From the IMG/VR virus record IMGVR_UViG_3300012956_000002, positions 55,930 through 75,929 of that record: a stretch of DNA of 20,000 bases; one strand, 5' to 3'. Each line of letters begins with the position of its first letter. The first letter of the stretch is position 1. This stretch comes from an uncultured virus (IMG/VR IMGVR_UViG_3300012956_000002). Its lineage: Duplodnaviria; Heunggongvirae; Uroviricota; Caudoviricetes. A program made the translations under genes and the position numbers. The notes beneath the pieces are model-generated. The model did no database searches. It worked only from the letters and a program-made list of their open reading frames with translations, and had not been told where the DNA came from. Of this stretch, positions 2,449 to 19,770 are shown piece by piece.

Positions 2449-2934
2449 TTACCCGTTGATGTACCAGTGGCCGTTGATGCGGAGCCAGTCCGAATCCGGT
2501 GCGACCAGGCGGGTGGTGTCGAGCGGGGCAGGGACATGTTTGGCTGTTTTGCGGAGCAGAGCGGCATACATCCGCAGCGCCTGACAGTCCGGGGAATCCC
2601 CGATGATGACCACGCCGGACGCCTTCCGCAGCGCGTAGCGGGTGAGTCTGGCCTTGGTTTCCTGAGCCGTGCCCTTGGGCAGCACAGCCCGTTCGTAGTA
2701 TTTGCGACTGATGGCGCTGGCCGGTCGGGCATTCGTGCCAACGACCAGCAGCTTCAAGCCCCATGTCACACACGTCCGCATGGCCTCGGCCTCGATCCCC
2801 AGCCGATCCAGTACCATGATCCCGCATTGCGTGGCGACGAGCGGCAGCGTCTTCAGCACGGCCACACGGGCCGCTTCCAGATGCAACGGGATGTTATCAG
2901 AACCCCCGTAGATGAGTATCCATTTGATGTTCAT
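2449..2934 (-). CDS. Hypothetical protein, possibly a divergent SLOG (DprA/YspA-like) Rossmannoid fold
   Basis: GAGGA RBS before ATG 2934. Alternating beta/alpha pattern ILIYGG...IMVLDRLGIE...LLVVG...RYALRKASGVVIIGD. Confidence 0.5.
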   Translation of the reverse strand: MNIKWILIYGGSDNIPLHLEAARVAVLKTLPLVATQCGIMVLDRLGIEAEAMRTCVTWGLKLLVVGTNARPASAISRKYYERAVLPKGTAQETKARLTRYALRKASGVVIIGDSPDCQALRMYAALLRKTAKHVPAPLDTTRLVAPDSDWLRINGHWYING

Positions 2935-3027
2935 AGCGTCCTCATTTGCTTGTGATGTCGTCACAGTATTACATGCCTCCTAACGGCAGTAAATAAAGAA
3001 GTCGTTCATGAATGACGGTCGAACCTA

Positions 3028-3056
3028 TTGACGAATACGAAAATCCGTTCTATATT
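3028..3056 (+). promoter_or_regulatory. Sigma70-type promoter for the ncRNA/tRNA operon
   Basis: TTGACG (3028-3033), 17-bp spacer, TATATT (3051-3056). Confidence 0.75.
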
Positions 3057-3122
3057 CGATTTACCGTTGGGTTAAGGAAACGCTCCCGCACCCTCCCAAT
3101 CGTGGGGGCGTTTCACCAACAA

Positions 3123-3196
3123 GTCGGTGTAGCTCACCGGTAGAGCGCCACTAGCGAGCTAGTGGAGGAAGCACGGTTCAATTCCTGCCATCGGCA
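3123..3196 (+). tRNA. tRNA-like RNA with an aberrant anticodon arm (identity undetermined)
   Basis: Acceptor GTCGGTG/CATCGGC, TA, D arm GCTC-ACCGGTA-GAGC, anticodon arm CCACT-AGCGAGCT-AGTGG, T arm GCACGG-TTCAATT-CCTGC with one bulge. Confidence 0.65.
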
Positions 3197-3199
3197 CAA

Positions 3200-3545
3200 A
3201 AACTCATGTGTGGTCGCAAGGGGGTAAGACCCCCAACCGTAGGGCAGCCCCCAGCCGTAAGGGGAACGTTTGGCAGAGTTCGTCAAAAACTGCCTTCTTT
3301 AACAGGTGGGGCGGTTCGCGGTAGCTCATGAGGCCGGTGCGAAAGATCGCCGGAGGATGGAGCGGGATAACCTTAATGGCCTACAACCGACGCAGTAGGC
3401 CGCCTTTCCCTCGCATCGACTCAATATATTGGGCGTTTTCGCCCTTAATACGCGGTGGCAAAGCTCAAAGAAGCCGCCGCACCATTGATGGTCAGTAGCC
3501 CGTGACTTAGATCGGGGCAGTTTGCGGTCTGCGGAAAACCGCCGC
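3200..3545 (+). ncRNA. Putative structured ncRNA between two tRNA genes
   Basis: No convincing ORF. Consecutive hairpins at 3220-3234, 3272-3294, 3334-3353, 3378-3401, 3431-3444, 3452-3480, 3498-3518 and 3524-3542, with G-U pairs on the + strand. Confidence 0.5.
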
Positions 3546-3547
3546 AT

Positions 3548-3619
3548 AGCGGGGTAGAGAAACGGCATCTCGCGAGGCTCATAACTTCGAGATTGGCAGT
3601 TCGAGTCTGCCCCCCGCAA
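3548..3619 (+). tRNA. tRNA-Met(CAT), initiator-like
   Basis: Acceptor AGCGGGG/CCCCGCA with a 1:72 mismatch, D stem GAGA/TCTC (A11:U24), loop CTCATAA, T arm GGCAG-TTCGAGT-CTGCC. CCA is not encoded. Confidence 0.92.
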
Positions 3620-3684
3620 CTTCAGGATGTCGTGACGGAATGACACATAGCATCTGCCCGATGAAAACCGTCTGTCAGGGCAAT

Positions 3685-3714
3685 AAAAACACCCACTTAT
3701 AAGCGGGTGTTTTT
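3685..3714. terminator. Bidirectional intrinsic terminator
   Basis: AAAAACACCCACTTATAAGCGGGTGTTTTT lies between the convergent tRNA operon and the long minus-strand operon. Confidence 0.8.
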
Positions 3715-3723
3715 GTTTGCGGT

Positions 3724-3741
3724 TTTGACCCATGGGTCAAA
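3724..3741. promoter_or_regulatory. 18-bp perfect palindrome, candidate parS-like site (copy 1)
   Basis: TTTGACCCATGGGTCAAA, identical to 18116-18133. Confidence 0.55.
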
Positions 3742-4153
3742 TGAGGTCGTATTGATAGGGCACATCCCCGTGTAGCTCGTAGACGTAGGCCGCCATCGCC
3801 TTAAAGAACCGGTCGAGGCCGTAGCGCATGGGGTTGATGTTGAGCATTGCCCACTCGGCCAGATGCGCGATGGTTTCATCGCCTTCCTCGTAGGCCAGCA
3901 CGAGCGTAGCCCACAGGCTTTCATTCGCCGCCATGCCAATGAGGGCAATCATCAGGTACTGCCGTTCATAGCGGTCGTCCGGTTCATAAACTTTTGCAAC
4001 GAGGTTTTCGTCCAGCACCTCGCCCCAATGGGCACGCCACTGGCGCAAGTCGCTTTCGTCAAAGTCATCGCCGCAGGCCGCCATAAACTCGACGCCTTCA
4101 GCCATAGCGTGTTCAAACGCCAGCACCAGAGGATCATCTTCAAGAGCGTTCAC
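3737..4153 (-). CDS. Acidic hypothetical protein
   Basis: 138 aa; GGAGGTGA RBS before the GTG start; overlaps the end of the upstream gene. Confidence 0.75.
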   Translation of the reverse strand: MNALEDDPLVLAFEHAMAEGVEFMAACGDDFDESDLRQWRAHWGEVLDENLVAKVYEPDDRYERQYLMIALIGMAANESLWATLVLAYEEGDETIAHLAEWAMLNINPMRYGLDRFFKAMAAYVYELHGDVPYQYDLI

Positions 4154-4601: not shown

Positions 4602-5522
4602 CTAAAACATGGCCGTTTGTGTGGGCTTGGCTTCCAGCACCCCGCCGAAGACCACCGCAATGCCACGGGAGAGGCCGACCTTCCGCAGCACATCAAGCAG
4701 GATGTCCGCACCTTGCACACCCATCCGCAGCACCAGGCGCTGCCGCGTGATGGCACGCATGAACACATTAGGGTTCATGAGCCAGCGGGTCCGCAGCAGT
4801 TCGAGGTACTTCTTATCCCAATCCTTCACCCCGACAGCGGTCATCCATCCCTCCATCGCGAGAAGATGCCCGATCTCGTCCTTGGTGTTGATCGTGCAAT
4901 CGACCTGATCCGCATCACTCAGCGCGATATGGTCAAAGTAGACGACACACATCAGCGGGGCAGGGCCGAACCGGTGATATGCGCCTTGAAGCTGGAGCCG
5001 GTAGGCGTCTTCGGTGCGGTTGGATGGTTCGAGGTACTTCATGCCCAGCATGGTGTACAGCGCCTGCTCGGATTGGATGGCGAGCTTTGTCTCACCCTTC
5101 CACCAGAATCCCCCTTCGGCCTTGTAGGGCGAGTGGCGGTAGTTGAGGAACTGCATCAGGTACTGGTTGGCATCGCCTGGACCGGTACGCAGCATCAGGA
5201 TGTAGCCCCAATTCCATTCGTTCGCGAGGAATATCTCGCACTTCATCCCTTTGTACAGCAAGCCGCGATAGCTGCTGCCCCAGCGGGCTTTGCCGTTGGA
5301 ATAAATCGCTATTTCGGCCTCACCGGTGGACACCATTTTGTCCAGTGCTTCGAGTAAGCCGCCCTTGTTCATCGCCACGATCTCAATATCCCCGACATCC
5401 GGCTTTTCACGGCGCAAGCTGCCAGCAATCTGGATTTTGGCACAGTACGGGCTTAGCTGTTCGCACAGTGCCTGAGCAATGGGCATGGCCTCATGGTACG
5501 GTCTGCGTTCGTCACTACTCAT
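4602..5522 (-). CDS. Minimal X-family DNA polymerase (Pol beta-like palm and thumb) with an unknown C-terminal domain
   Basis: IAGSLRREKPDVGDIEIVA, LRTGPGDAN and SEQALYTMLGMKYLEPSNR are PolX motifs. No N-terminal lyase domain and no PHP domain. Confidence 0.85.
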   Translation of the reverse strand: MSSDERRPYHEAMPIAQALCEQLSPYCAKIQIAGSLRREKPDVGDIEIVAMNKGGLLEALDKMVSTGEAEIAIYSNGKARWGSSYRGLLYKGMKCEIFLANEWNWGYILMLRTGPGDANQYLMQFLNYRHSPYKAEGGFWWKGETKLAIQSEQALYTMLGMKYLEPSNRTEDAYRLQLQGAYHRFGPAPLMCVVYFDHIALSDADQVDCTINTKDEIGHLLAMEGWMTAVGVKDWDKKYLELLRTRWLMNPNVFMRAITRQRLVLRMGVQGADILLDVLRKVGLSRGIAVVFGGVLEAKPTQTAMF

Positions 5523-6294: not shown

Positions 6295-6564
6295 CTATCC
6301 TTTCACTCGGTACTCAATCACATCGATAATTAGCCGCTCAAGGGCGGCATCACTGATTTTGGAATAGTATTCAACGACCTTCGGATAGGTCTTGGCGTGC
6401 CGCCACTGGCTGACAATATCCTCGATCCGTAAGTGGACATAGGCGCGGTTGTCTTCACACAGGTACTTACGGGATTGCTTCAGCCGCTCCCTGTCGGTGT
6501 TGTGGGCAGCGGCCACGACCAGCTTCTGACGCGGCGAGTGGGGTGAGGGTACTTTACGCGCCAC
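6295..6564 (-). CDS. Hypothetical protein
   Basis: C-terminal part of track ORF 6295..6696. GTG 6564 overlaps the end of the upstream gene; the start is uncertain. Confidence 0.6.
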   Translation of the reverse strand: MARKVPSPHSPRQKLVVAAAHNTDRERLKQSRKYLCEDNRAYVHLRIEDIVSQWRHAKTYPKVVEYYSKISDAALERLIIDVIEYRVKG

Positions 6565-7504
6565 GATCTGCCTGCCATTTCCGTACTTCCGGCTCCAACA
6601 GGTCGGGCCGTAGGTCAGACAGCCATTTGCCATCCTGAAACGACCAGCCGGACTCCATCTCCCAGCGCGTATACTGCCGGTACAGGTCGGGCGCAAATTC
6701 CGCCCCGTTCAACAGGTCATTTTCACCGGCCAACACGCACAACGCACAGGACAGCCGTTCATTGCCAAGGGCATAGGCGGGATGCGCCACAAACGAGCCG
6801 AGCAGGTTCTCGACCAGTTGCTGCTTATCCATGCCGCCCTCGCGCTTTTGCTGGATCGCTGCCTGGTACAGCCGGAGCATGTCCGTCCGGTAGCCAAGTT
6901 CCCACCACACCTGTGAGAGCGTCCAGTCATGGATCGGCAGCCAGTTCAGCACCTGCCGCTTCTTGACGTGGCAGCCTTTCCGCTCCGACAGGATGGGTAG
7001 CCGTGCGCGGTTTTTACTCTCCTCGGCACGCATTCCCATAGTCACAAGGATGCGACCGGTCGGGAAATGATTGTTCACCCAGACGTTGATAACAGCACGT
7101 TTCTCATCGCTCGTGCAGTACCGCGCAGCAGAAGAAGGCCAAAAGGGTTTGTCCGTGCCTGCGAGCTTGTGGCGGCGGCGGTCGATCAGGGCAGGCAAAT
7201 CAAGCCCATCGTTCCGGCGTACCACATGGAGCGGCACACCGGCATCGGCGCACTGCTTGGCGACCACACGGGGCGTCACACCCCACTCGGCGCGGCCAAG
7301 GTCGGCATGTACGGCGATGATCTGCCCTTTAAATGCCATCTGGCGGTGCCAGCGGGTTAAGTGCCGGAGCATGGCCTGAGAATCCTTGCCGCCCGATATG
7401 CTGACGACCAAATCCCAGCCATCGCGCAGGAGCGCACCAGGATCAAGGTCAGGGAGCGCTTGGGCACGTTCCCCTTCATCACAAAAGAGGTCTAATTGCT
7501 TCAT
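6554..7504 (-). CDS. PAPS-reductase/DndC-like family protein (PP-loop ATP pyrophosphatase with Cys motifs)
   Basis: PP-loop SISGGKDS, RYCTSDEKR, GMRAEESKNRA, WLPIHDW and HPAY...RLSCALC. Confidence 0.9.
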   Translation of the reverse strand: MKQLDLFCDEGERAQALPDLDPGALLRDGWDLVVSISGGKDSQAMLRHLTRWHRQMAFKGQIIAVHADLGRAEWGVTPRVVAKQCADAGVPLHVVRRNDGLDLPALIDRRRHKLAGTDKPFWPSSAARYCTSDEKRAVINVWVNNHFPTGRILVTMGMRAEESKNRARLPILSERKGCHVKKRQVLNWLPIHDWTLSQVWWELGYRTDMLRLYQAAIQQKREGGMDKQQLVENLLGSFVAHPAYALGNERLSCALCVLAGENDLLNGAEFAPDLYRQYTRWEMESGWSFQDGKWLSDLRPDLLEPEVRKWQADRGA

Positions 7505-7873: not shown

Positions 7874-8575
7874 CTAGCTCGGTACGATTTCACCCGTCAG
7901 GAAGGCGACAATTTGGTCTGCGGTGGCACAGTGGGCGCGGCGGCTGGCCTGTATCCATGCCTTATCCGGCTCCTCGTTGGCCTGCCGCTCGGCCTTGGCC
8001 TGTTCTTTGCGGACTGCCCCGACCAGCATGTCAATGGTCACCTCTTTGCCGCGCAGGTGCTGGCAGTTGATGGTCGCCTGCACTTCAATGTAGACGTGCA
8101 TCTCGCCACGGATGGCCTGATTGTCGAGGTTATCCCATGCGGCATCCTGCACGAAGCGGCTGCGTGCGGCACTGAGGCGGGTTTCCATGTCTTCCCACAA
8201 GCCCCGTGCCCAGAAGTGGTAGGTTTCGTTCAACACGGGCGATACGGGCTTGGGTGTTCTGGCCGGATTGCGCTTGATCCGCTCCGATTTGTGGGGCGGC
8301 GGGTTCTTCATCATGCAGTCAATCTTGCGCTCAAGGCCGCCGATCATGGCACGCAGGCGGATTTTTTCCTTGGCATCATCAATAATGTGGTCGAGTGCTG
8401 CGGCCTTGCGCTTGTTCAGTTCGCGGGAGGGTTTCCCGCTGCCCCCGACCAATCCCATGTGGAAGTGTTCCACCATCTCATCGCCAGGGTAGCGCTTCTG
8501 TTCCAACCGGTTGAGTTTGTTGGTGGCCGAGTCCAGCTTGCGCCGGAGCCGGTCAATCGTGGTGTGCTTGCTCAC
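7874..8575 (-). CDS. Hypothetical basic protein with N-terminal coiled coil
   Basis: AAGGAGG RBS before GTG 8575; 233 aa. Confidence 0.75.
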   Translation of the reverse strand: MSKHTTIDRLRRKLDSATNKLNRLEQKRYPGDEMVEHFHMGLVGGSGKPSRELNKRKAAALDHIIDDAKEKIRLRAMIGGLERKIDCMMKNPPPHKSERIKRNPARTPKPVSPVLNETYHFWARGLWEDMETRLSAARSRFVQDAAWDNLDNQAIRGEMHVYIEVQATINCQHLRGKEVTIDMLVGAVRKEQAKAERQANEEPDKAWIQASRRAHCATADQIVAFLTGEIVPS

Positions 8576-8943
8576 AATGTTCCTCCTTCTATTACGCGCC
8601 ATGAGGCGAGTGCGTGGACATCGAGTAAATAGGGATCAGTAAAACGGACGATGTACTGATGGCGTGGGGCATATCCCCACACCACAGCCTCATCCACTTC
8701 ATCGACGACAACCGGATCACCGACCTTGTGCGGCCATGCCTCATGGGACACGGGCGCAAGCTGATAGTTGTACAGGTCGTCAAAGGTCAGTTGATGGTCA
8801 TATCTCACGAACCCATAGCCGAGGTCGTAGGCCTCAAAGCCTTCCATCTTCTCGACCGCCTGCCCACCCTCCGGCCACACGTTCGGGCGCGAGAAGGGGG
8901 CGTAGACAAATACTTTCGGTTTCTTGGCTGTGTTGTCATTCAT
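8572..8943 (-). CDS. DarA C-terminal-like (defence-against-restriction A) domain protein
   Basis: YAPFSRP...PEG...YGFVRYDHQLTFDDLYNYQLAP resembles the DarA_C pattern. ATGA coupling to the upstream gene. Confidence 0.55.
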   Translation of the reverse strand: MNDNTAKKPKVFVYAPFSRPNVWPEGGQAVEKMEGFEAYDLGYGFVRYDHQLTFDDLYNYQLAPVSHEAWPHKVGDPVVVDEVDEAVVWGYAPRHQYIVRFTDPYLLDVHALASWRVIEGGTL

Positions 8944-9383
8944 GATGCTGCCTGCCGTTCCTTCCATTGGCGGTACAGGTATTTACCGGCATCGGTCAGG
9001 ATCATCATCAAAGCCGTTTCGGTGATGTCATGCTTGACTAAGCCGCGTGCCAGCAGGCTCTCAGCAGCATCATTCGGGATTTCCACCCGTCTGATCGCGC
9101 CACGCTGCCCAAGGTGGATGATGACGTTTTCCTCGGTTGAGTTGAGGATCATCGCCATTTTGAAGCTGTCCGCTTCCTCGATATTGACCTTGGTGTCATC
9201 CAGCCGGTACAGGTCAACACGCAGCTTGGTCAGGTGTAAGGGGAAGAAGTGAATCAATCCCCCTTGCAGATTGCCCGTGCTGGGGTTGTTCCAGCCGAAC
9301 TCGATCACCCGCTGCTCGTTGCGGTCGCGCTTGTTGGCCGCGTCAGCAGGGGTATTCAGGTTTACAGTCACTCGCTTACGCAT
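8940..9383 (-). CDS. Hypothetical protein
   Basis: 147 aa; overlaps both neighbours; C-terminus is wHTH-like (LLARGLV...ILTDAG). Confidence 0.7.
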   Translation of the reverse strand: MRKRVTVNLNTPADAANKRDRNEQRVIEFGWNNPSTGNLQGGLIHFFPLHLTKLRVDLYRLDDTKVNIEEADSFKMAMILNSTEENVIIHLGQRGAIRRVEIPNDAAESLLARGLVKHDITETALMMILTDAGKYLYRQWKERQAAS

Positions 9384-11307
9384 TTTTCACTTGCTCCTTC
9401 TGGGCTATGGCCTCACGCAGAATGCGTGCGGCTTCCTTCATGTCCTCAATATCCCCACTCATCGCCGCCTTGGCGTAGTCGCGCTGGGCTTTGACCAATG
9501 GGTCAATGGCCTTAACAGGTTGCTCTATCGTTACAATGTCCACGGTTTTAGTCGGGACGTAAACAGGTTTCTCAATCATGACAATGCGCGTCTGCACACC
9601 GGTCACACGGTAGCCATTGGCCTTGAAAGCGTCCGGCGGCAGCTTCTCACTCGTCCCGCCGATCTCCTCCAACCACTCGCGGAAGGCCTTGGATTGCTTG
9701 CTGTTGGCGAAAAAGCCATGTTCGCTCATGATGGCGACCAGCTTCCCGCCTTCTTTCAGGAACTGCTCATACACATACTGCACATGCTCGATGTCCTGCT
9801 CATCTTCAAACGGCGGGTTCATGACCACGCGGTCGTACATGTCTTCGCGCTTCACGTCATAGTTGAATATCTGGTAGGCCACCAGCTCGTGCCCTTTGAG
9901 TTCCAGAATGTCACGCAGGCGCAGCACAGGCTCAACGCAGTGGACGATGGCGTCAGGGTGTTGGTCTTTGACCGCATCGGCAATGTTGCCCCAACCGGCA
10001 CTTGGCTCCAGCACCCGCATTCCAGTCTGGATGTCGGCCATTGCCAGCATCTGATCCACAATGTTGCTGGGGGTCGGGATGAAGCCTTCGATGTTCGTCC
10101 CAATCAGATCGCGCTTGATGGCCGCGATTTTGTCCCATGTGGTCATTTCCTTGGGCGGGATGTCCTTCAACAGTTCCCGCAGTTCAAAGCGTGCATCACT
10201 GAAGCGGTGCGGTGTGCCAATCCCTGCCTTCAGCAGCCGTTTGAAGTCGTCTTTCGCCGTAACAGCGCTGGGCAGGTAATCCTTAAACAACAGCCATTCC
10301 ACCGTAGCCCGTGTCAGGACACCCTTCAGCACCTCAGGCACTGTGTCCGTATCCCATGCGTCCGCGAGTTTAAGAAGGGCACTTTGCACCCGTTCCAGGC
10401 GGTCGGCATCCTGCGCCATCCCCGCGATGATGTCCATGCGGCGGCGGGTCGGGTTCTGGTTGGCCGTGGCCGGATGGCGTTTCTCATCAATCAGCTTCTG
10501 CATAGCTACAGCCAACTTGCGGAATTTGTCCGCAGGTGAGTCATAGGTGATAGCCTTGATGGCGTTGTCGGCCTTCAGGTTCTCCACCACTTCATCAAAG
10601 GCAGCCCCATCGACCAGCGCCTGAATATCATCCGGCAGCTTTTCCACTGGACACATCCAGAAGCGGTCTTTGCGGTCGTCTTTGTTCCAGCGGAAGCCAA
10701 GGGTATCCTTGTACTGCCGGAAGGTATCCGCATCCTCAAAGCGCGTGTTGTGGATTTCCCAGCCGCCATCGACCTTGACCGCTCGGTAACTGTCGCTGCT
10801 GCCCTTGGCCTTGGCCTCAGACTTGGCCGCTGGCAGACTGTCGCTCGTCTTGTGCGCTTCCTGATAAATCAGGTCAGACAGGGTATAGCTGCCCCCGCCA
10901 GGGAAAACGCTGTGATCCTGCGCCACATGTGCCGACTGATCCCATGTCGAGGTTTTAATCTCAGGCAGGGGCAGCCCGTAGCGGTCGCACACGATCTGCG
11001 CCATGCGGGTATAGAAGGGCACCGTGTACTTGCGATGCTCATGGATATAATCCGCACCCCAATGTACTTTTTCCTTCGTCACCGGATGGATGCCGTAGAT
11101 CGGGGTTGCTAAATCCTGCATCCCGTCAAACGACTGGCCTTCAAAATTCTTGGTGACCTGTTCCACCTCGGCCACGCTCGGCCCGTCCCACCATTCCACA
11201 TCGGTCGATCCCCCGCTGATGTAGACCCGAAACTTGACTTTAGGCCACATCTCAGCGAGTGCCTGACGAATAAACTTATTCGTTTCGGCTTGCGTGATGT
11301 ACGTCAT
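9376..11307 (-). CDS. Polyvalent protein: N-terminal LPD29-like domain plus C-terminal amino (N6-A type) DNA methyltransferase
   Basis: N-terminus IRQAL...PKVKFRV...VEWWDGPS...FEGQSFDGMQD. C-terminus FIPTP, VLEPSAGWG (motif I) and VVMNPPF (motif IV). AAAGGA RBS. Confidence 0.85.
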   Translation of the reverse strand: MTYITQAETNKFIRQALAEMWPKVKFRVYISGGSTDVEWWDGPSVAEVEQVTKNFEGQSFDGMQDLATPIYGIHPVTKEKVHWGADYIHEHRKYTVPFYTRMAQIVCDRYGLPLPEIKTSTWDQSAHVAQDHSVFPGGGSYTLSDLIYQEAHKTSDSLPAAKSEAKAKGSSDSYRAVKVDGGWEIHNTRFEDADTFRQYKDTLGFRWNKDDRKDRFWMCPVEKLPDDIQALVDGAAFDEVVENLKADNAIKAITYDSPADKFRKLAVAMQKLIDEKRHPATANQNPTRRRMDIIAGMAQDADRLERVQSALLKLADAWDTDTVPEVLKGVLTRATVEWLLFKDYLPSAVTAKDDFKRLLKAGIGTPHRFSDARFELRELLKDIPPKEMTTWDKIAAIKRDLIGTNIEGFIPTPSNIVDQMLAMADIQTGMRVLEPSAGWGNIADAVKDQHPDAIVHCVEPVLRLRDILELKGHELVAYQIFNYDVKREDMYDRVVMNPPFEDEQDIEHVQYVYEQFLKEGGKLVAIMSEHGFFANSKQSKAFREWLEEIGGTSEKLPPDAFKANGYRVTGVQTRIVMIEKPVYVPTKTVDIVTIEQPVKAIDPLVKAQRDYAKAAMSGDIEDMKEAARILREAIAQKEQVKNA

Positions 11308-11327
11308 ACTTCATCCTTTCTACTTGA

Positions 11328-11378
11328 ACTAAAAAAGCAAAGCTCCCCATGCGCGGAGGGCGCATAGGGTGATTTGGT
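11328..11378 (-). terminator. Repeated intergenic hairpin with U-tract (copy 1)
   Basis: 48/51 identical to 11864-11914. Minus strand: CCCTATGCGC-loop-GCGCATGGGG...TTTGCTTTTTT. Confidence 0.7.
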
Positions 11379-11381
11379 GCT

Positions 11382-11837
11382 TTAGTCCACTGAATCCATC
11401 AGGCGGCGACCCATCGGGGTGAGGTCAATGTCATAGGCCACGTCCCGCTTATGGATGACCACAAGCCCACGATCCTCCAATGCGTGCCAGTAGGCTTGCA
11501 TGTGCCGCGTCACCGGAAAGCTGCCCCCAAGGGCTTCCTGCTCGTCCTGATGCAGCGAGTCCCATTTGATATTCAGTGCGTCCCAATGCGCTTTGTAGCG
11601 CCGGTAAGCGGTCGCCCGTGCTTCGCCCTGTGCATTCACCCAGCGAAATTGCCGTTTCGCCTGGGTCATCGCCTCGGCTTTGGTTCTGCCTTCACCCATA
11701 TAGGTAAAGGAAGGCGTGCGGATCGATACCGTCCAGCGATGGGCTTTGGAAAGGTTTTCGTTCAGCCGTGCGCTAATCTGTATCCAGTCGTTCAGCCGCA
11801 GCCGGTGGGCGTGTTCCAGTCTCGCAAGCGTTTCCAT
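11382..11837 (-). CDS. Hypothetical protein
   Basis: 151 aa; GAGGAGG RBS; wHTH-like C-terminus (ALEDRGLV...LTPMGR). Confidence 0.8.
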   Translation of the reverse strand: METLARLEHAHRLRLNDWIQISARLNENLSKAHRWTVSIRTPSFTYMGEGRTKAEAMTQAKRQFRWVNAQGEARATAYRRYKAHWDALNIKWDSLHQDEQEALGGSFPVTRHMQAYWHALEDRGLVVIHKRDVAYDIDLTPMGRRLMDSVD

Positions 11838-11863
11838 TGTCTCGATCCTCCTCTATTGGTTAG

Positions 11864-11914
11864 ACTAAAAAAGCAAAGCTCCCCATGCGCTGAGAGCGCA
11901 TAGGGTGCTTTGGT
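11864..11914 (-). terminator. Repeated intergenic hairpin with U-tract (copy 2)
   Basis: Minus strand: CAAAGCACCCTATGCGC-TCTCA-GCGCATGGGGAGCTTTG-CTTTTTT. Confidence 0.7.
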
Positions 11915-11936
11915 TATTTAGTTGTAAATTTAGGGG

Positions 11937-12911
11937 TTACATGTCGTCAGGGTTGACGCGCTTCAGCTTGGTCAGGGGCACAAACGGGCAGTCTTCGAGG
12001 TCTTCAAACAAGAGCGAAGCCTCGCCATCCTTGATCCCGATCACCACACCCTGAAGCCCTGCGTCAAGCGGATATTCGTTGGTGCTGTCATACACCTTGG
12101 CGAAGTGGTACTCGGTCAGTTCTGCCGTATCCCCGACCGTGAGCGGGGCATCTGTACCATCCCATGCCGCTGGCCGCACCGTATCACCGACCTTGACACC
12201 CTTTCTTACAGGGTCAAGTTCATTCAGCAGGAAGCGGCGGCCAACATACTCCGGCAGCCACAAGGTAAACTGAATCACTGCCGACCCCGTGCCCTCATCT
12301 ACTTCGGTAATGAAGGCCTCCGCACCCTTGCGGATGACGTGCCACTTACCCTTGCTATCCTCAAAGGCGTGCGGATAGTCGTGGTTGAGCGCGACCGTAT
12401 CACCAACCTCATGCTTAACCACTGGCCGCTCGTCCGGCTCATCCTCGAACTTGCTGCGTATCCATGCAGCCTCGGCCTGCGCTTTGGCGACCTTGTAGGG
12501 ATCGAGTGGGGCAGGGGGCATGTTGCTGCCTTCCGCAACCGGCACGTTCGCCGTGACCCATTGGTGAAGAACGGACTGTGCCGTTTGCTCGAAGACGAAC
12601 ATCGTCACAGGGTTAGCTTCACAGGTTCGGGCATCTGGGAAGCCTTGCGCCATCGTCAGCAAGAAAGCATTGATAGCTGCCTCACCGATGTGCTGCATCC
12701 GATCATCCAGATTGCCAAGGTCAATGACCTTTTCGCCGCCTTCGTAGCCGCGCATGATCCCATCGACAGACACAAGGTAATTCACCTCTGGCTCCCGTTG
12801 GGTTTCCACACTGCGACCGGCTTCTCCTTGGATGCCGTTGGCCGGATCGACCACCCGCGCACCCTTTCTCAAGCCTTCAGGCATGGCGTGGTACTCTCTC
12901 ACAGTTATCAT
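11937..12911 (-). CDS. Acidic multidomain hypothetical protein with two SH3/KOW-like barrels
   Basis: GGAGG RBS before ATG 12911 (MITVREY), not the track start at 13121. Repeated VGDTV/VGDTA...G.V/I motifs; 324 aa. Confidence 0.75.
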   Translation of the reverse strand: MITVREYHAMPEGLRKGARVVDPANGIQGEAGRSVETQREPEVNYLVSVDGIMRGYEGGEKVIDLGNLDDRMQHIGEAAINAFLLTMAQGFPDARTCEANPVTMFVFEQTAQSVLHQWVTANVPVAEGSNMPPAPLDPYKVAKAQAEAAWIRSKFEDEPDERPVVKHEVGDTVALNHDYPHAFEDSKGKWHVIRKGAEAFITEVDEGTGSAVIQFTLWLPEYVGRRFLLNELDPVRKGVKVGDTVRPAAWDGTDAPLTVGDTAELTEYHFAKVYDSTNEYPLDAGLQGVVIGIKDGEASLLFEDLEDCPFVPLTKLKRVNPDDM

Positions 12912-13017
12912 CGTATCCTCCATATATTCAGTTGTTAAATAGAAAGTCGTGCTTGAGCGCACGTCACAGGCCGCGAGGAAGGGGTGACAACCTCGTGGCC
13001 TGTTCCGCGTGCGCTCA

Positions 13018-14010
13018 CTACGCGGTGTGTGACAGCTTGTTAATCTGTCGTGCAATGTCTTTGACGATGGTATCCGGTGTCGTGGTAATCTCAAGCTGGA
13101 TGTCTGCGTCCTGCCGATCACTGATATTACCCACCGTGATAATCAAGTCAGGCTTGAGCCATTCGCGTGCCCACGCAACCGCTGGGCCGCCGTTCCCACA
13201 CACGAACAGGTAAGGCACATTCGATTTGCCGAAACTCGTTTGCCCGTCATCGAGCATGGAAAGCTGCTCGGCATAGGCATATTCGTGCTGCATCAAATTC
13301 ATCATGCCTTGCCACCACAGATGATAATCCAGCGCAGCCCTAAAAATCTTTGGGCTGTACGTGCTGCCTGGTTCGGCCAGCATGTAGGGCATCACTGCTT
13401 CCTCGTATCCCGATTTCGGATGAACGCGATGGCGTCCCAGCGACATTGTGGCGTAGACATCAAGGCCGTTGGCCTCTGCTGCCCACTGTAAAGCCAGCGA
13501 TGTCCGCATAAGTGTCGGCAGATACTTTGGATTACCCACCTCACCATCCCCCGCGCTCGACAAAATCGCGATGCGGGGCGGCCTAGCAGGTTTCAGTTCG
13601 CGATGCTTGTACGGGCGCACCGTTTCGGCTGTATATGTGCCAGACAGCGAGGTCATGACGACATTGCTGAGCTTGCGCGTATCCAACCGACCACTGATGC
13701 AATTGCGCTCGATCACGATCTTGGTCACATCAGCAAACAGGTGGCCGATGCGACCGGCCATCAGGCGGCTCTCACCGAGCAAATCCTTGGGCACTTCCCA
13801 ATCCTCGATGGCCTTACGTGCCAGCGAATGATCGAAGTACACACGGAACCGCTTGTCACCGATTTTGTAATCGTTGAACAATTGGTTGCCGATCCGTGGA
13901 TCAGGCTCAGGATAGGCCGCGAGGTCGCGCATATCCAACCGAATGCCGAGGCCTTTCTTACCTTTTTTGTTGGTGTAAGGCTCAAGCCGAAAAATCGACT
14001 TCTTTTGCAT
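13018..14010 (-). CDS. Putative vWA/CobT-like partner of the MoxR-type ATPase
   Basis: Directly downstream of the AAA+ gene. SGRLDTRKL precedes a hydrophobic strand, as in CobT/vWA partners, but there is no canonical DxSxS. Confidence 0.55.
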   Translation of the reverse strand: MQKKSIFRLEPYTNKKGKKGLGIRLDMRDLAAYPEPDPRIGNQLFNDYKIGDKRFRVYFDHSLARKAIEDWEVPKDLLGESRLMAGRIGHLFADVTKIVIERNCISGRLDTRKLSNVVMTSLSGTYTAETVRPYKHRELKPARPPRIAILSSAGDGEVGNPKYLPTLMRTSLALQWAAEANGLDVYATMSLGRHRVHPKSGYEEAVMPYMLAEPGSTYSPKIFRAALDYHLWWQGMMNLMQHEYAYAEQLSMLDDGQTSFGKSNVPYLFVCGNGGPAVAWAREWLKPDLIITVGNISDRQDADIQLEITTTPDTIVKDIARQINKLSHTA

Positions 14011-14124
14011 TTCGTATCCTTTCTATTCAGTTGTTAATAAGGGTTTTAGGTCGTGCGACCAATCCCACCCACATGCGAACATGTGGAGGGGCGTGATACA
14101 CGAGCGCAAAGCGGACAGTCATTT

Positions 14125-15216
14125 TCATGATCCAGACTTGGCAGCAAAAGGACTCGCACTGCCGAACGGGCTTGCAGGCTTAGGATTGTTGAAAGAAGGC
14201 CGCGCAGAGGGCGCAGGCACGGGCGCAGGTTTTGGAGCCAGCATGTCCCGCGTGTCCGCGTCCAGCCGCTCCAAAAATTCATGCTCCATTGCTTCCTCTA
14301 AATCCCAACCAAGGAAGTCGATCCCGTCAGCCATCCGCAGCAGTGTCCGGTTTGACAGCACCACGCGCAGCGCGTTGTCGTCAATCGTTTTCCGCATGGA
14401 CGCAGCCCAATCGACCAACTGGTCAGCCGTATACTCATCGTAGCCATTCGAGAGCAGGATTTCTTTCTCATGCTCATACCCTGTCGTGATAATCGTGATC
14501 CGATCCATGCTTGCGGCATCAAGGGCATTGCGACCGACATACTGCCGCGTTGCGCCACTACCGAAAGTGTTCATGGTCAGGATTATCGGGCAGTCACCTT
14601 GCGGATATACCCGCCCTTCAGGGCTTGTGATGTACCGACCCTTTTTGTGCATCCCTGCCGCTTGAAAGGCACTTTGAAGACAGAGAGCCGCACGCGGATT
14701 TGCCGCGTCAAACTCATTGATAATCAAAGCCTTGCCCTGCGTAAAGCAGCGCGTCACAATTCCAGGCTTGTACACCTCCGACCCCTGCCCATCCTTCAGC
14801 ACGTAGGTCGTGGCTCCGATGAGGTCTGCCGGTTCGATAAACTCAGTCATATCGAGGACTTCGTACTCGTACCCCAGCACTTCCAGCACTGCCTCCGCAA
14901 CTGTCGTTTTGCCGTTCCCAGCGGGACCGACAAGCGCAATCACGGGGCGGCATCGGCTAGGCTGTAGATACATGCACAATTTACCCCAATACTTTGGCTT
15001 AATGATGCTCGTATGTGCTGCGATGGCAGCTTCAGACGAATTGTTGTCGATTACGACAGCAAGTCCATCTTTCACCGATACCCACAGCGCGAGGTCATCC
15101 GGTTTGTCACCCTGCCAATTGAGCATAATGCTTATGCTTTGGTCGTCAGGGCTAGTCGTTGTCGCGACAATCCGTGGCTCAGGCAGAGCCATAGCCGTAT
15201 CCGTAACAGACTCCAT
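14125..15216 (-). CDS. MoxR/CbbQ/CobS-like AAA+ ATPase
   Basis: Walker A GPAGNGKT, Walker B variant LIINEFD, sensor region TMNTFGSGATRQYVGRNALDAASMDR. Confidence 0.9.
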   Translation of the reverse strand: MESVTDTAMALPEPRIVATTTSPDDQSISIMLNWQGDKPDDLALWVSVKDGLAVVIDNNSSEAAIAAHTSIIKPKYWGKLCMYLQPSRCRPVIALVGPAGNGKTTVAEAVLEVLGYEYEVLDMTEFIEPADLIGATTYVLKDGQGSEVYKPGIVTRCFTQGKALIINEFDAANPRAALCLQSAFQAAGMHKKGRYITSPEGRVYPQGDCPIILTMNTFGSGATRQYVGRNALDAASMDRITIITTGYEHEKEILLSNGYDEYTADQLVDWAASMRKTIDDNALRVVLSNRTLLRMADGIDFLGWDLEEAMEHEFLERLDADTRDMLAPKPAPVPAPSARPSFNNPKPASPFGSASPFAAKSGS

Positions 15217-15258
15217 AATTTCACCCCTATTCAGTTATTAAATTGCGAAAGTGCGATT

Positions 15259-15325
15259 AGCACATAACAGGGCTTAAATTGCCTTAAGCCCTGTTATGTG
15301 CTGCCAGTGTCAGCACTGGCAGCAC
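15259..15325. repeat. Two overlapping long inverted repeats
   Basis: A 19-bp stem at 15259-15277/15284-15302 and a 12-bp stem at 15298-15309/15314-15325. Confidence 0.85.
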
Positions 15326-15332
15326 GGGCAGC

Positions 15333-15632
15333 CTATTTTCTGGGCAGATACCATGAAATATGAGTCACCTTATCACCCAGCACATAGTCGAGAGTCCAGT
15401 ATTTCGGGGCTGAAGCCTTCAGTATTTGAATGATGAGTCTGATTTCATCATATGTAATAAAGGGCTTATGCCATTCCAGAGTCACCAAAATTCTAGTAAT
15501 GGGCTTAACCTTTGTGCCTGTTTTGGTGATTAGATTCAGGGTGTCAGCAGATTCAAAAATTTTAGCTATGGTCACACCCTTATGAGACTGTAGAGTCTCA
15601 ATTCCTGCCCTTAGTTCCACACCCTTTGTCAT
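15333..15632 (-). CDS. Hypothetical protein, first gene of the leftward operon
   Basis: ATG 15632 with a GAAGGGTG RBS just downstream of the promoter; 99 aa; CG-poor codons. Confidence 0.75.
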   Translation of the reverse strand: MTKGVELRAGIETLQSHKGVTIAKIFESADTLNLITKTGTKVKPITRILVTLEWHKPFITYDEIRLIIQILKASAPKYWTLDYVLGDKVTHISWYLPRK

Positions 15633-15647
15633 GTTGTCACCCTTCAG

Positions 15648-15714
15648 ATAAATTGACTGTACAGTCATTATATAGACTTCAGACTGTACAGTCAATACAT
15701 ATTTTAAAATTGCC
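15648..15714 (-). promoter_or_regulatory. Leftward strong sigma70 promoter with two palindromic operators
   Basis: TTGACT (15695-15690), 17 bp, TATAAT (15672-15667). GACTGTACAGTC at 15682-15693 and TGACTGTACAGTCA at 15654-15667. AT-rich UP-like element. Confidence 0.85.
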
Positions 15715-15720
15715 TATTTT

Positions 15721-16079
15721 TGCTGCCAGTGCTGCCAGTGTCAGCCCATAAAATCACCCTTTGTCATCCTCGAAACAAAGCATAAGAGGATAGAAGGCAG
15801 CATAAGAGGATAGAAGGGCTGACAGCCCACAGAAGGCAGCATAAGCCCTTCTGTGCTGCCAGTGCTGCCAGTGTCAGCCCACAGAAGGCAGCAAAATTTT
15901 TCACCCTGGTATGCACTTTTTTAATTGCCAGTGCTGCCAGTGTCAGCCCATAAAATCACCCTTTGTCATCCTCGAAACAAAGCATAAGAGGATAGAAGGC
16001 AGTGTCAGCCCACAGAAGGCAGCAAAATTTTTCACCCTGGTATGCACTTTTTTAATTGCCAGTGCTGCCAGTGTCAGCC
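15721..16079. repeat. Nested direct-repeat array between the divergent promoters (candidate origin or genome-end region)
   Basis: A ~77-bp block at ~15724 repeats 202 bp later, and a ~78-bp block at ~15871 repeats 131 bp later. GCTGCCAGTGTCAGCC occurs four times. Confidence 0.85.
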
Positions 16080-16111
16080 TAGACTCACCCCTCATAATGA
16101 GGGGTAATTGT

Positions 16112-16178
16112 GGCAATTTTAAAATATCTATTGACTGTACAGTCACATATCCATATAATGACTGTATAGTCAATTTAT
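16112..16178 (+). promoter_or_regulatory. Rightward strong sigma70 promoter with two palindromic operators
   Basis: TTGACT (16131-16136), 17 bp, TATAAT (16154-16159). TGACTGTACAGTCA at 16132-16145 and TGACTGTATAGTCA at 16159-16172. Inverted copy of 15648-15714. Confidence 0.85.
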
Positions 16179-16220
16179 AGGTAAGCACTTGATTAAGTTC
16201 TATGAAGACTAATCACCCTT

Positions 16221-16298
16221 TGTCATCCTCGTGCAAAGCATAAGAGGATGACACTCAGAAGGGCTTAAGCATAAGCCCTTAAGCCCTTCTGAGTGTCA
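16221..16298 (+). repeat. Overlapping hairpins in the 5' leader
   Basis: 10-bp stem TGTCATCCTC/GAGGATGACA (16221-16253) and a perfect 21-bp stem at 16249-16269/16278-16298. Confidence 0.85.
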
Positions 16299-16346
16299 AT
16301 ATAGACACTAGGCAAAATTGCCAGCAAAAACAAAGGATTATGAATC

Positions 16347-17033
16347 ATGACTACAGTAGATAGCATTCCTGTTACAAGCAATATGAAGACTGGTATCAGT
16401 GCCAAGGGCATAGCAGCACAAGCCAAGGCACAACTGGCAGCACAGAAGGCACAATTAGAAGCACAGAAGGCAGAACTCAAACAGACTGAGTCAGCACTGA
16501 AGGCAGAACTCAAACAGAAGAAAGAATCACTGAAGGCTGAGTCAGATGCTGCCAAGGCTGAAGCCCTTGGCAAGAAAGTACAAATTGACTCTTACCTTTG
16601 GCTTGCTAATTGGGCAAAGGGCAGCATAAGGGCAGACAAGGCAGAGAAGGCAGCACTGAAGGCAATTGAGAAGGCAGAAAAGACACTAGAAAAGATAGCA
16701 GCACCTAAAACCCCTGAATATCAGAATGGTAATGAGATTATCAAAACTGACTTGCCACAGACTCATGCTGATGTCTTGAATCTCATTGCTGAAGGCTTGT
16801 CAGCCAGTGTCAGCACTAAGGGTAAGTCAAAGGGTGATGTCATTATTGCCAGTGCAAGAATTGACCTTGCTAACCTGAAGAAAAAACATGCTGAAGCCCT
16901 TCAGTCATTAATCACAAAGGATTATGTCAGCATGACTCAACCTGATTACTACATGCTGACTGACAAAGGGCTGGCAGTGTTTGGGCTGACACTACAACAG
17001 GTCAAAGATAATTACCTTGCATCGCTCGAATAA
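16347..17033 (+). CDS. Lys/Ala-rich coiled-coil protein with a possible C-terminal wHTH
   Basis: 228 aa; AAAGGA RBS; AQKAQL/AELKQ heptads; LQSLITKDYV...YMLTDKG. No CG dinucleotide until the last four codons. Confidence 0.8.
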   Translation: MTTVDSIPVTSNMKTGISAKGIAAQAKAQLAAQKAQLEAQKAELKQTESALKAELKQKKESLKAESDAAKAEALGKKVQIDSYLWLANWAKGSIRADKAEKAALKAIEKAEKTLEKIAAPKTPEYQNGNEIIKTDLPQTHADVLNLIAEGLSASVSTKGKSKGDVIIASARIDLANLKKKHAEALQSLITKDYVSMTQPDYYMLTDKGLAVFGLTLQQVKDNYLASLE

Positions 17034-17048
17034 AGCATAAGACAGCAT

Positions 17049-17149
17049 TAGAAGGGCAGCATAAGCCCTTCTGTGCTGCCTTCAGGGCTGATGTCATCCA
17101 TCAGCCCTGAAGGCAGTATAAGACACTCGAAACAAAGCATAAGAGGATA
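17049..17149 (+). repeat. ~100-bp structured intergenic leader repeat (copy 1)
   Basis: Near-identical to 17370-17469. Contains an 18-bp stem CTGCCTTCAGGGCTGATG/CATCAGCCCTGAAGGCAG and ends in CTCGAAACAAAGCATAAGAGGATA. Confidence 0.85.
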
Positions 17150-17157
17150 GAAAAAAC

Positions 17158-17337
17158 ATGAGACAAGATTCTGTTTGTTGTGTCATAGGTGAGATTTTAT
17201 TCATTATGAAAACTGGAATGTGCCAAGGTTACACACTCACATTCCATTCTGCCAAGGCAGCACTAGCCTATGCCAGACTCTGTAGAATGGATTTAATGAA
17301 GGCTGAAGCCTTTATTGCCTTCTGTGAGGGATCATAG
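17158..17337 (+). CDS. Small Cys-rich hypothetical protein (59 aa, not in the ORF track)
   Basis: MRQDSVCCVIGEILFIMKTGMCQGYTLTFHSAKAALAYARLCRMDLMKAEAFIAFCEGS*. The GAGGA RBS comes from the repeat, and the ORF fills the gap between the two repeat copies. Confidence 0.6.
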   Translation: MRQDSVCCVIGEILFIMKTGMCQGYTLTFHSAKAALAYARLCRMDLMKAEAFIAFCEGS

Positions 17338-18178: not shown

Positions 18179-19006
18179 GTGCAGATGATCGAGACAACGC
18201 AGGACATCCGGCTGGACATGATTCAGCCTGGAAGCAATGACCGCAAGCTGTTTAAGGCGGATGAACTCCGGCAGCTTGCGGACAATATCAAGACGAATGG
18301 ACTGGCGCAGCCTATCACCGTTCGACCGGTGGGCAAAAACCAGTACCAGATCGTCGCCGGTGAGCGGCGGTTCCGTGCCTTCGGACTGCTGCGGGAGGAG
18401 GACGCCGAGCGCTGGGGTGCGATTACTGCCCTCGTGCGTGAGATGTCGGATGAGAAGGCGGACGCCATCATGCTGGCCGAGAACATCCAGCGCAAAGACT
18501 TGGATGTGATTGAGGAAGCCGAGGCGTACCAGAAGCGGATGGATAAGTACGGATGGACGCTGAAGAAGTGCGCCGAGGAATGCAATGTCAGTGAAGGCAG
18601 GGTAGGCGACCGCGTGAAGCTGTTGAAGCTGCTGCCGGAAGTGCAAACCCTTGTCCGGCACGGGCATATGCCCATCGGGCACGCGCTGGCAATGACCGAC
18701 CTGAACAAAAACAACCAGCTCATCGCGTTGAAGGCGTTGGACGGAAAGAACCTGACCAAGACGCAGTACATCGCGGTGTGTGCCGACCTGTACGCCAAAC
18801 AGTGCCAATTGTCGATGTTCGATGATGACCAACTGTTTAACGAGGCGGTGGTGCTGGCACAGAGTTTTATTGAGCCGGTCAACACGACTATTGTATTTGA
18901 GATTCCGAACAACCGTGCTACTATCCATGTAGTGATCGAATACCCCAAGGGCTTAGGTGTCGAGATCGATACCGCAGCCATCGCCAAACTCATAACTTTT
19001 AAATGA
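18179..19006 (+). CDS. parB: ParB/RepB/Spo0J-family protein
   Basis: LADNIKTNGLAQPITVR, IVAGERRFRA (CTPase box), ENIQRKDL..IEEA, then an HTH (TLKKCAEECNVSEGRV). Confidence 0.9.
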   Translation: MQMIETTQDIRLDMIQPGSNDRKLFKADELRQLADNIKTNGLAQPITVRPVGKNQYQIVAGERRFRAFGLLREEDAERWGAITALVREMSDEKADAIMLAENIQRKDLDVIEEAEAYQKRMDKYGWTLKKCAEECNVSEGRVGDRVKLLKLLPEVQTLVRHGHMPIGHALAMTDLNKNNQLIALKALDGKNLTKTQYIAVCADLYAKQCQLSMFDDDQLFNEAVVLAQSFIEPVNTTIVFEIPNNRATIHVVIEYPKGLGVEIDTAAIAKLITFK

Positions 19007-19770
19007 AACGAGGTGTCATGGGCACATTAGCCGACAATTTCTATGCCAATGGGATGCCCCTCAGTGGGCCGGACGTGATTAAACGTATCCAGCAGGAAAC
19101 GGATGAAATCGCGGTCGCCTTCTCGTATGGGAAGGACTCACTGGCAACCTACCTCTCCGTGAAAGACGAGTTTAAGCGGGTCGTGCCGTTCTTCAGAGAG
19201 TTCGTTCCGGGGATGCAGTTCATCGAGCGCAGGCTCGCCTATTATGAGGACATCCTCGGTACGCACATCGTCCGCGTCAACCACGTCAATTTCTTCCGCA
19301 TGATCCGCCATGCGCTGTGGCAGCCGCCGCACCGCATCCCCATGATCGATGCCATGAACATACCGGATGTCGATTACAAGCAAATCAACCAACTGGTATT
19401 TGCCGATCAGGGATTGCCGCCAGATGTGTTCACGGCAGCAGGGGTCAGGGCAGCAGACAGCCCCCAGCGTCGGGCAACGGCCAAATCCAGAGGTGCAATC
19501 AACTGGAATGAGCGCGTGTTCTGGCCGGTCTGGGATTTATCCCATGCCGAGGTGGGCGACATGCTGCGGAAGCACAACATCAAGCTCTCACCAGAGTACG
19601 AATGGTGGGGCACATCGTTTGACGGGCTTCGGAGGTTCTTCTTAAAAGACATCCGTGAGCATTGGCCGGAGGATTATGATCTGATCCTCCAATATTATCC
19701 GTTCGCGGATATGGAATTTCGCCGCTATGAACTGAAGGATGAACCCTATCCAGAAAGCGAGGTCAAGTGA
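19003..19770 (+). CDS. Phage-type PAPS-reductase-like / adenine nucleotide alpha-hydrolase protein
   Basis: PP-loop AFSYGKDS, GVRAADSPQRR, FWPVWD and SFDG; no Cys residues. Start is 19003 (ATGA coupling) or 19018 (GAGGTG RBS). Confidence 0.8.
   Translation: MKRGVMGTLADNFYANGMPLSGPDVIKRIQQETDEIAVAFSYGKDSLATYLSVKDEFKRVVPFFREFVPGMQFIERRLAYYEDILGTHIVRVNHVNFFRMIRHALWQPPHRIPMIDAMNIPDVDYKQINQLVFADQGLPPDVFTAAGVRAADSPQRRATAKSRGAINWNERVFWPVWDLSHAEVGDMLRKHNIKLSPEYEWWGTSFDGLRRFFLKDIREHWPEDYDLILQYYPFADMEFRRYELKDEPYPESEVK

Follow-up and report, generated by a model that had tools for sequence, protein, structure and literature searches.

Between two tRNA-shaped elements of an uncultured virus lies a stretch of about 345 nt (positions 3200–3545) that is rich in stems, and the question is whether it gives rise to one large non-coding RNA, as the initial annotation had proposed, or to several smaller ones. 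The window analysed here has 20,000 nt and forms the final 20 kb of a 75,929-base virus record (G000) with direct terminal repeats and with genes for terminase, portal, capsid and integrase. G000 is a complete temperate phage of 75.9 kb. The relatives of its capsid from named bins belong to Caldilineaceae, Phototrophicaceae, Aggregatilineales and Chloroflexota, and in one case to a Gammaproteobacteria bin. Since the named capsid relatives come mostly from Chloroflexota-type bins, the host is likely to be a Chloroflexota bacterium.

Several other loci were seen in passing. In the window, the stretches 4602–5522, 6554–7504, 13018–15216 and 18179–19770 hold a protein that weakly matches the DNA polymerase beta thumb, two proteins like PAPS reductase, an AAA ATPase with an unknown gene beside it, and a ParB protein. 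At 15000–17300 the GC content is 42–46%, compared with about 56%, and the gene direction switches there. In locus L014, formyl transferase, glycosyltransferase, MT-A70 and DegT aminotransferase genes form a sugar-modification cluster among the head genes (7995–14039), and a protein before the capsid genes (14544–16367) shows a weak N-terminal match to the 2'-5' RNA ligase (2H) superfamily.

Anatomy of the tRNA-bounded unit

The RNA unit is on the + strand and is flanked by two - strand genes without a known family; its features are collected in Table 1. The promoter that had been placed at its start was found again as a sigma-70-like TTGACG-17-TATATT site (10/12), the sole site in 2800–4000, where shuffled sequences gave a mean of 0.7. 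The long hairpin in the leader was also confirmed, an equal fold being reached by 1 of 200 shuffles. For the terminator proposed at 3685–3714, the hairpin is plain in the sequence and the region 3620–3720 folds at z -3.42, but the terminator scan left this hairpin unflagged. The region 3629–3714 gives in addition a weak match to the Rfam family BASRCI414 (E 0.024, 19.8 bits, far below the cut-off), which is probably a terminator likeness. As had been stated, the unit has no credible + strand ORF: none of at least 60 aa is present, and the four ATG ORFs are of 13–56 aa. A 135-aa ORF on the - strand (3326–3733) was dropped as a gene candidate; it has no PHROG or Pfam family.

Two runs (X2 and X3) of one study labelled wastewater metagenome contain short contigs, of depth 3–7, from a close relative. 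These contigs cover the promoter (X3 only), the leader, the tRNA-like element, module 2 and the core. The changes considered here are 40 of their 67 substitutions, outside the tRNA-like element, module 2 and the 5' strand of the core. Among the changes listed, those in the terminator hairpin (3699 and 3701) are apical and outside the 10-bp base stem. A contig of X4 covers the downstream ORF alone.

Both tRNA shapes match the Rfam tRNA model, with 42.1 bits for 3123–3196 and 52.8 bits for 3548–3619. ARAGORN at default settings reports one tRNA in the whole G000 genome and overlooks the element 3123–3196. The D arm and the T loop of this element are normal; its anticodon arm forms either an 8-nt loop without U33 or a 7-bp stem with a 4-nt loop. 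Because of the 8-nt loop without U33, it seems unlikely to serve as a decoding tRNA. X3 lacks the extra C of the T stem (base 3174 left out), and so does X2 (loose end at 3173). The X2 contig has 11 gaps, all of them within the leader, so that the length of the tRNA-like arm is kept in X2.

The second element has the CAU anticodon together with the 1:72 mismatch, a mark of initiators. The three consecutive G-C pairs that initiators have in the anticodon stem, according to PMC6393288, are absent from it, the corresponding pairs being A-U, G.U and G-C. The changes of X3 in its T stem keep 5/5 pairs, and two of these pairs are changed on both sides. This tRNA-Met could escape a nuclease directed at tRNA-fMet, or serve as a decoy.

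Table 1. Features of the RNA unit, in positions of the window
Feature	Position	Strand	Basis or remark
Sigma-70-like promoter	3028–3056	+	promoter scan; in relative X3 the -35 box is TTGACA and one -10 base is altered
Leader hairpin	3066–3120	+	z -3.08; region covered by relatives X2 and X3, with insertions
tRNA-shaped element without usable anticodon loop	3123–3196	+	Rfam tRNA match; extra C in T stem
Module 2: hairpin 3220–3234 and predicted small three-way fold 3241–3296	3210–3297	+	weakly supported, z -0.69, -0.83
BoxA-like/TTAACA spacer	3293–3304	+	TTAACA ends 3 nt upstream of core
100-nt core RNA	3308–3407	+	homologues L076 875–974 and L080 (G037 6723–6822)
Core helix P1	3308–3312/3402–3406	+	predicted
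Core helix P2	3313–3316/3369–3372	+	predicted
Core helix P3	3324–3327/3360–3363	+	predicted
Core helix P4	3334–3339/3348–3353	+	predicted
Core helix P5	3378–3384/3395–3401	+	predicted; preceded by linker UUAAU; 10-nt loop
Variable module, 4–5 hairpins, dispensable	3408–3545	+	z -1.63; 25 nt instead in X3 contig, loose end in X2
tRNA-Met(CAT), initiator-type acceptor	3548–3619	+	A1.A72 mismatch, G2-C71, C3-G70, A11-U24
Terminator-like hairpin, U run (A run on opposite side)	3685–3719	+	sequence and folding

One RNA or a chain of modules

The four stems quoted in the initial annotation are present at 3220–3234, 3378–3401, 3431–3444 and 3452–3480, and the boxA-like word is TTCTTTAACA at 3295–3304, within the spacer 3293–3304. 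As for the "at least eight stems", strict counting gives 7 non-overlapping GC-rich hairpins, and weaker stems raise the count. This density is unusual: the shuffled mean was 3.3, 7 hairpins were reached by 3 of 500 shuffles, and among 57 tiles of the window this number was reached solely by the tile over the RNA unit.

Such a density, with two tRNA shapes as boundaries, would suit a single RNA of about 345 nt, perhaps GOLLD- or ROOL-like, of which the core is one domain. According to PMC12286853, GOLLD combines a variable 5' part with a conserved 3' part and may contain tRNAs. The folding energy, however, does not favour one folding unit: over the 351-nt interval the MFE is at z -1.29, and 8 of 100 shuffles were equally good, in other words the stretch as a whole is no better than shuffles, an outcome that the initial annotation had named as counting against its proposal. 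Its thirds fold at z -0.82, +0.24 and -1.50. Furthermore, in one X3 contig 139 nt of the window (3406–3544) are replaced by 25 nt, which join 3405 directly to 3545, and the X2 contig has the same loose end, while the conserved part is 100 nt. Apart from the core and one paralogue of it, no module has a match between the window and the two other loci that carry the core (L076 and L080, see below), and module 2 is unmatched by any module of these loci.

The Rfam scan gave nothing credible over 3200–3545 at E<=10, the sole above-threshold matches being the two tRNAs, and over the core two junk lncRNA fragments are the only matches at that cut-off. The GOLLD covariance model, which covers the conserved 3' region, was unmatched in the scans of the window, L076 and L080, and the ROOL model in those of the window. 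In PMC12286853 and PMC6582537, GOLLD is given as longer than 400 nt and often longer than 800 nt. The window unit resembles GOLLD and ROOL in being a structured RNA of a phage or prophage beside tRNA-Met and a pseudo-tRNA; it is unlike GOLLD in that 345 nt lie between the tRNAs, short of 400 nt, and that the conserved unit of 100 nt moves alone. The proposals of a single species and of a GOLLD/ROOL likeness are thus unsupported, and we regard one 345-nt RNA as improbable. The interval is likely to be a chain of small folded RNAs. What stands from the initial reading is an uncatalogued structured non-coding RNA under selection within the tRNA-bounded unit.

In this chain, module 2 is covered by X2 and X3 with substitutions and indels. 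The core is more constant: in the X3 contig, 1 of 84 positions differs in the core (3322–3405), compared with 37 of 411 downstream (3545–3955; P 0.012). It should be mentioned that 3513–3527 in the variable module matches the first bases of the core at 13 of 15 positions (p 0.06); it is possibly a remnant of a second core copy.

The 100-nt core, its copies and its predicted fold

The core was found in two further loci, namely a 1.3-kb metagenome contig (L076) and a 25-kb phage record that is 59% complete (G037, locus L080). The three copies differ pairwise at 10, 8 and 13 of 100 positions, the core recurring 90–92% identical; their 60-nt flanks match at 18–40% without gaps, as unrelated sequences, and the conservation stops at the terminal stem. 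When G037 was compared with G000, the core stretch was the sole blastn match, and tblastn gave one match, a 24%-identical terminase. The core family is uncatalogued in Rfam and common to unrelated phages.

In all three loci (3/3) the core is downstream of tRNA-shaped elements. In L076 it follows a tRNA-shaped element (808–872) in an array with a promoter-like site 17 nt upstream. In L080, three modules follow the portal gene, namely a tRNA-shaped one (a), a 115-nt paralogue of the core (b) and the core (c), and then a terminator. Module a (2217–2284, - strand) has a tiny D arm and a 3-nt loop at the anticodon position, and folds at z -3.5. Module b (2090–2204, - strand) gives a score against the core that none of 300 shuffles reaches (0/300). 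An X1 contig covering 3308–3392 has the upstream sequence of L080 and four differences like L080, and was not counted as independent. Behind the L076 core there is a long, ORF-poor and structured-looking stretch (975–1324), which is without an Rfam match and runs off the contig; one of its hairpins resembles 3452–3480 of the window by eye, the similarity not being significant.

These contexts bear on the possibility that the core works in cis, as a processing stalk, a stabiliser or an antitermination element (made up of the boxA-like spacer and structured RNA) for the neighbouring tRNAs, and never accumulates alone. The core is always within a tRNA-like array, and TTAACA is directly upstream in 3 of 4 copies including the paralogue, that is, in the window and in both related L080 modules. 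However, L076 lacks the TTAACA spacer, in L080 the core closes the array, followed by the terminator and nothing that it could serve, and the core has a closed 5'/3' stem. A role in cis seems unlikely.

With regard to the searches, all matches of the early exact-pattern scans were due to chance (8/8, then 4/4); later scans gave one match each that was true (1/1, L076; 1/1, L080). Further pattern scans gave 1 true match of 4 (L080 again) and 1 true locus of 13 (L080, both modules). Locus L097 had a similar appearance but, being antisense within a 924-aa ORF, was rejected as a homologue. The pattern used for the genome-collection scan misses both the L076 and L080 variants. In 36 phage records, mostly fragments and searched by DNA without a positive control, the core was not found (0/36), bar three matches of 14–15 nt; the model R1 found it in none of 59 phage records (0/59), mostly capsid relatives and fragments, likewise without a positive control. 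Scans with the neighbouring proteins found no close relative bearing the RNA unit, and G000 has no second copy of the core. Blastn against GenBank phages and plasmids gave tRNA matches or short chance matches only. Rfam scans by gathering threshold and by E-value over the window, L076, L080 and the chance loci gave tRNAs and weak terminator-like matches only. A literature search, of a kind that does not reach large supplementary catalogues, found no publication on the motif. A 20-nt stretch of the core and the L080 contig id are both absent from six supplementary files of PMC10690425; the motif may be among the 10,006 candidates of that work.

The predicted fold of the core is a three-way junction. 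A terminal stem of 5 bp leads into a long arm, which a 5-nt linker separates from a hairpin of 7 bp with a 10-nt loop. The long arm is composed of 4 bp, a 7x5 loop, 4 bp, a 6x6 purine-rich loop, 6 bp and a GAAA-containing apex. This junction is the MFE structure of the window copy alone, and it is identical in the consensus of the three sequences. The 6x6 loop might be taken as a k-turn, with tandem G.A beside U.U, a reading that suits the paralogue better than the core.

The positions of the changes support this fold. Among the three copies, 12 of 52 paired columns vary compared with 2 of 48 unpaired ones (Fisher P 0.008, the structure being checked on the same sequences). Between the window and L076 all six touched pairs are kept (6/6; P 1e-4 for random placement), and between the window and the L080 core four of six (P 0.04), two of the 26 pairs in the latter being broken. 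In the consensus, 3 of 25 pairs have two-sided changes, and 97% of the cells pair compared with 29–51% in slid controls. Three independent copies are too few for formal covariation, and the pair-shuffle control on three rows was not significant (65/500 for two-sided pairs, 56/500 for the score). By itself, the core does not exceed shuffles in stability (z -0.47, -0.76 and -0.61 for the three copies). The L080 paralogue was misaligned by MAFFT and was compared by eye, no model being built from it; in this alignment P1, P2, P3 and P5 are kept, with an extra two-sided change in P5. The loops are near-invariant across copies. Frozen loops combined with covarying stems are a pattern of RNAs that make protein or tertiary contacts. 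Taken as a whole, the core is very probably a real conserved RNA element.

The same data bear on two other explanations of the conservation. The very high identity, in a temperate phage with an integrase, might reflect recently transferred functionless DNA or a host-gene copy picked up at an attachment site. This would be quite improbable, as the changes in the stems keep pairs and the loops are frozen, the identity does not extend beyond the terminal stem, the integrase is about 26 kb away, and the divergent paralogue retains the architecture. Alternatively, a small peptide might drive the conservation. A 13-codon ORF (3357–3398) and a longer frame from 3328 are both open in 3/3 copies, and the single change in the former is synonymous. 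This reading is disfavoured because the third codon positions are frozen between unrelated phages. In addition, GGAGG abuts the ATG with zero spacing, codon 3 of the paralogue is a stop, and the longer frame shows mostly non-synonymous changes and differing lengths. We regard a coding function as very improbable.

The invariant P5 loop raises the question of whether the modules join as subunits into a multi-RNA assembly, in which this loop would pair with a loop of the upstream module. The last loop of the upstream element in L076 contains a 7-nt Watson-Crick complement of the P5 loop, and the P5 loop of the L080 paralogue contains one of 5 nt (6 with G.U). These complements were, however, noticed after the fact, and the match includes ordinary T-arm sequence. 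For the window, the tRNA-like element offers the best complements, in its acceptor stem (6 nt) or T arm (5 nt). The P5 loop never varies and therefore offers no covariation, and its predicted accessibility in folds of the whole unit ranges from 0.07 to 0.68. Such an assembly is considered to have only a slight chance.

Relation to known RNAs and proposed role

No family-model match of the core was found among Rfam tRNA, SRP RNA, tmRNA, RNase P RNA, 6S and small ribozymes. The core (3308–3407) does not form a cloverleaf with D, anticodon and T arms; the three-way fold is found instead. The bacterial small SRP RNA is of about 100 nt, with a long arm and a purine-rich symmetric loop with C.A/A.C pairs below a GNRA-type apex. 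The core is similar to it in size, in the long arm and in the purine-rich symmetric loop below a GNRA-type apex, but its loop lacks the C.A/A.C pairs, its apical helix is longer, it has an extra hairpin, and it has no Rfam match.

A divergent Y RNA, binding a host Ro60 protein, would also have about 100 nt, paired ends and tRNA-like neighbours, and the 5' strand of the core loosely resembles the GGUCCGA given in PMC4201824. However, the TROVE gene is absent from G000 and G037: a Ro60/TROVE gene was found within 4 kb in 0 of 2 records (G037 being 59% complete; L076 has only 1.3 kb). Compared by eye with YrlA/YrlB, the core has no GNCGAAN0-1G near its 5' end and no T and D arms, the apical hairpin of L076 being the sole motif match, and no Rfam family matches. 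This assignment is extremely improbable.

The unit shares with allo-tRNA and irregular tRNA polycistrons, as described in PMC5389517, arrays of tRNA shapes, some of them outside translation, and a predicted 12-bp acceptor branch. The core is unlike allo-tRNAs of that source in that it lacks a D arm, a T loop and an anticodon arm, its branch is predicted as 5+7 rather than 8/4 or 9/3, and no toxin-antitoxin pair was identified next to it. The best reading is that the core belongs to the small stable RNAs of a phage operon punctuated by tRNAs and is akin to T4 RNAC/RNAD. PMC3014915 presents these two as small RNAs of a tRNA region with an unknown role; like the core, they would be non-tRNA structured elements inside a tRNA-bearing unit. 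Relative to that account, the present case differs in the small temperate phage, the one canonical tRNA and the module common to unrelated phages. A comparison with RNAC/RNAD made through Rfam and GenBank-phage blastn only gave no credible match.

On this analogy, the unit would be transcribed as one precursor from 3028–3056, and cutting at the tRNA-like ends would yield the two tRNA shapes and free the core. P1 and P5 might stack to 12 bp resembling an acceptor/T-arm branch, followed by one discriminator-like base; this means that RNase P may cut before P1, with 3' trimming after P1. The discriminator-like base is A in L080 b, L080 c and X2/X3, and U in the window and L076. The terminal stem is predicted at only 5 bp, and a 7+5 register is possible too. 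Since the core has neither a T-loop consensus nor an encoded CCA, its recognition by RNase P is not assured. PMC4201824 describes one Y RNA, with an acceptor-like stem of 7 bp, that RNase P cuts and that acquires CCA. Release of the core as its own small RNA is predicted with a modest preference, and the fuller model, in which host tRNA processing frees a core that acts as a protein-binding tRNA mimic, has about an even chance.

The freed core might bind a host protein through its invariant loops, so that the phage keeps translation running. Beside it are a tRNA look-alike that lacks an anticodon and a tRNA of initiator type whose anticodon stem is altered, and from these neighbours the target is guessed to be a tRNA-directed nuclease, toxin or sensor. 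Phage tRNAs counter host tRNA nucleases in the case set out in PMC10264068; given this case and the neighbours, the core may best be guessed to act as a decoy against tRNA-directed defence, although a decoy or mimic role is less likely than not. A wider scheme, which seems unlikely, is that Chloroflexota phages trade a toolkit of tRNA-punctuated modules. The core would then represent a new RNA-only class of counter-defence or host control, a mimic of the tRNA top in which frozen loops trap a host protein and the P5 loop may dock onto a neighbour, to give a multi-RNA particle as a modular counterpart of the GOLLD/ROOL cages.

For decades, non-tRNA RNAs have been known from phage tRNA clusters, but no function has been assigned to them. 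The core is small, sharply bounded and common to unrelated phages, and it has a natural paralogue, so it is directly open to biochemistry. Should it act as a decoy against tRNA-directed defence, it would add an RNA-only form of counter-defence; otherwise it remains an RNA family absent from Rfam.
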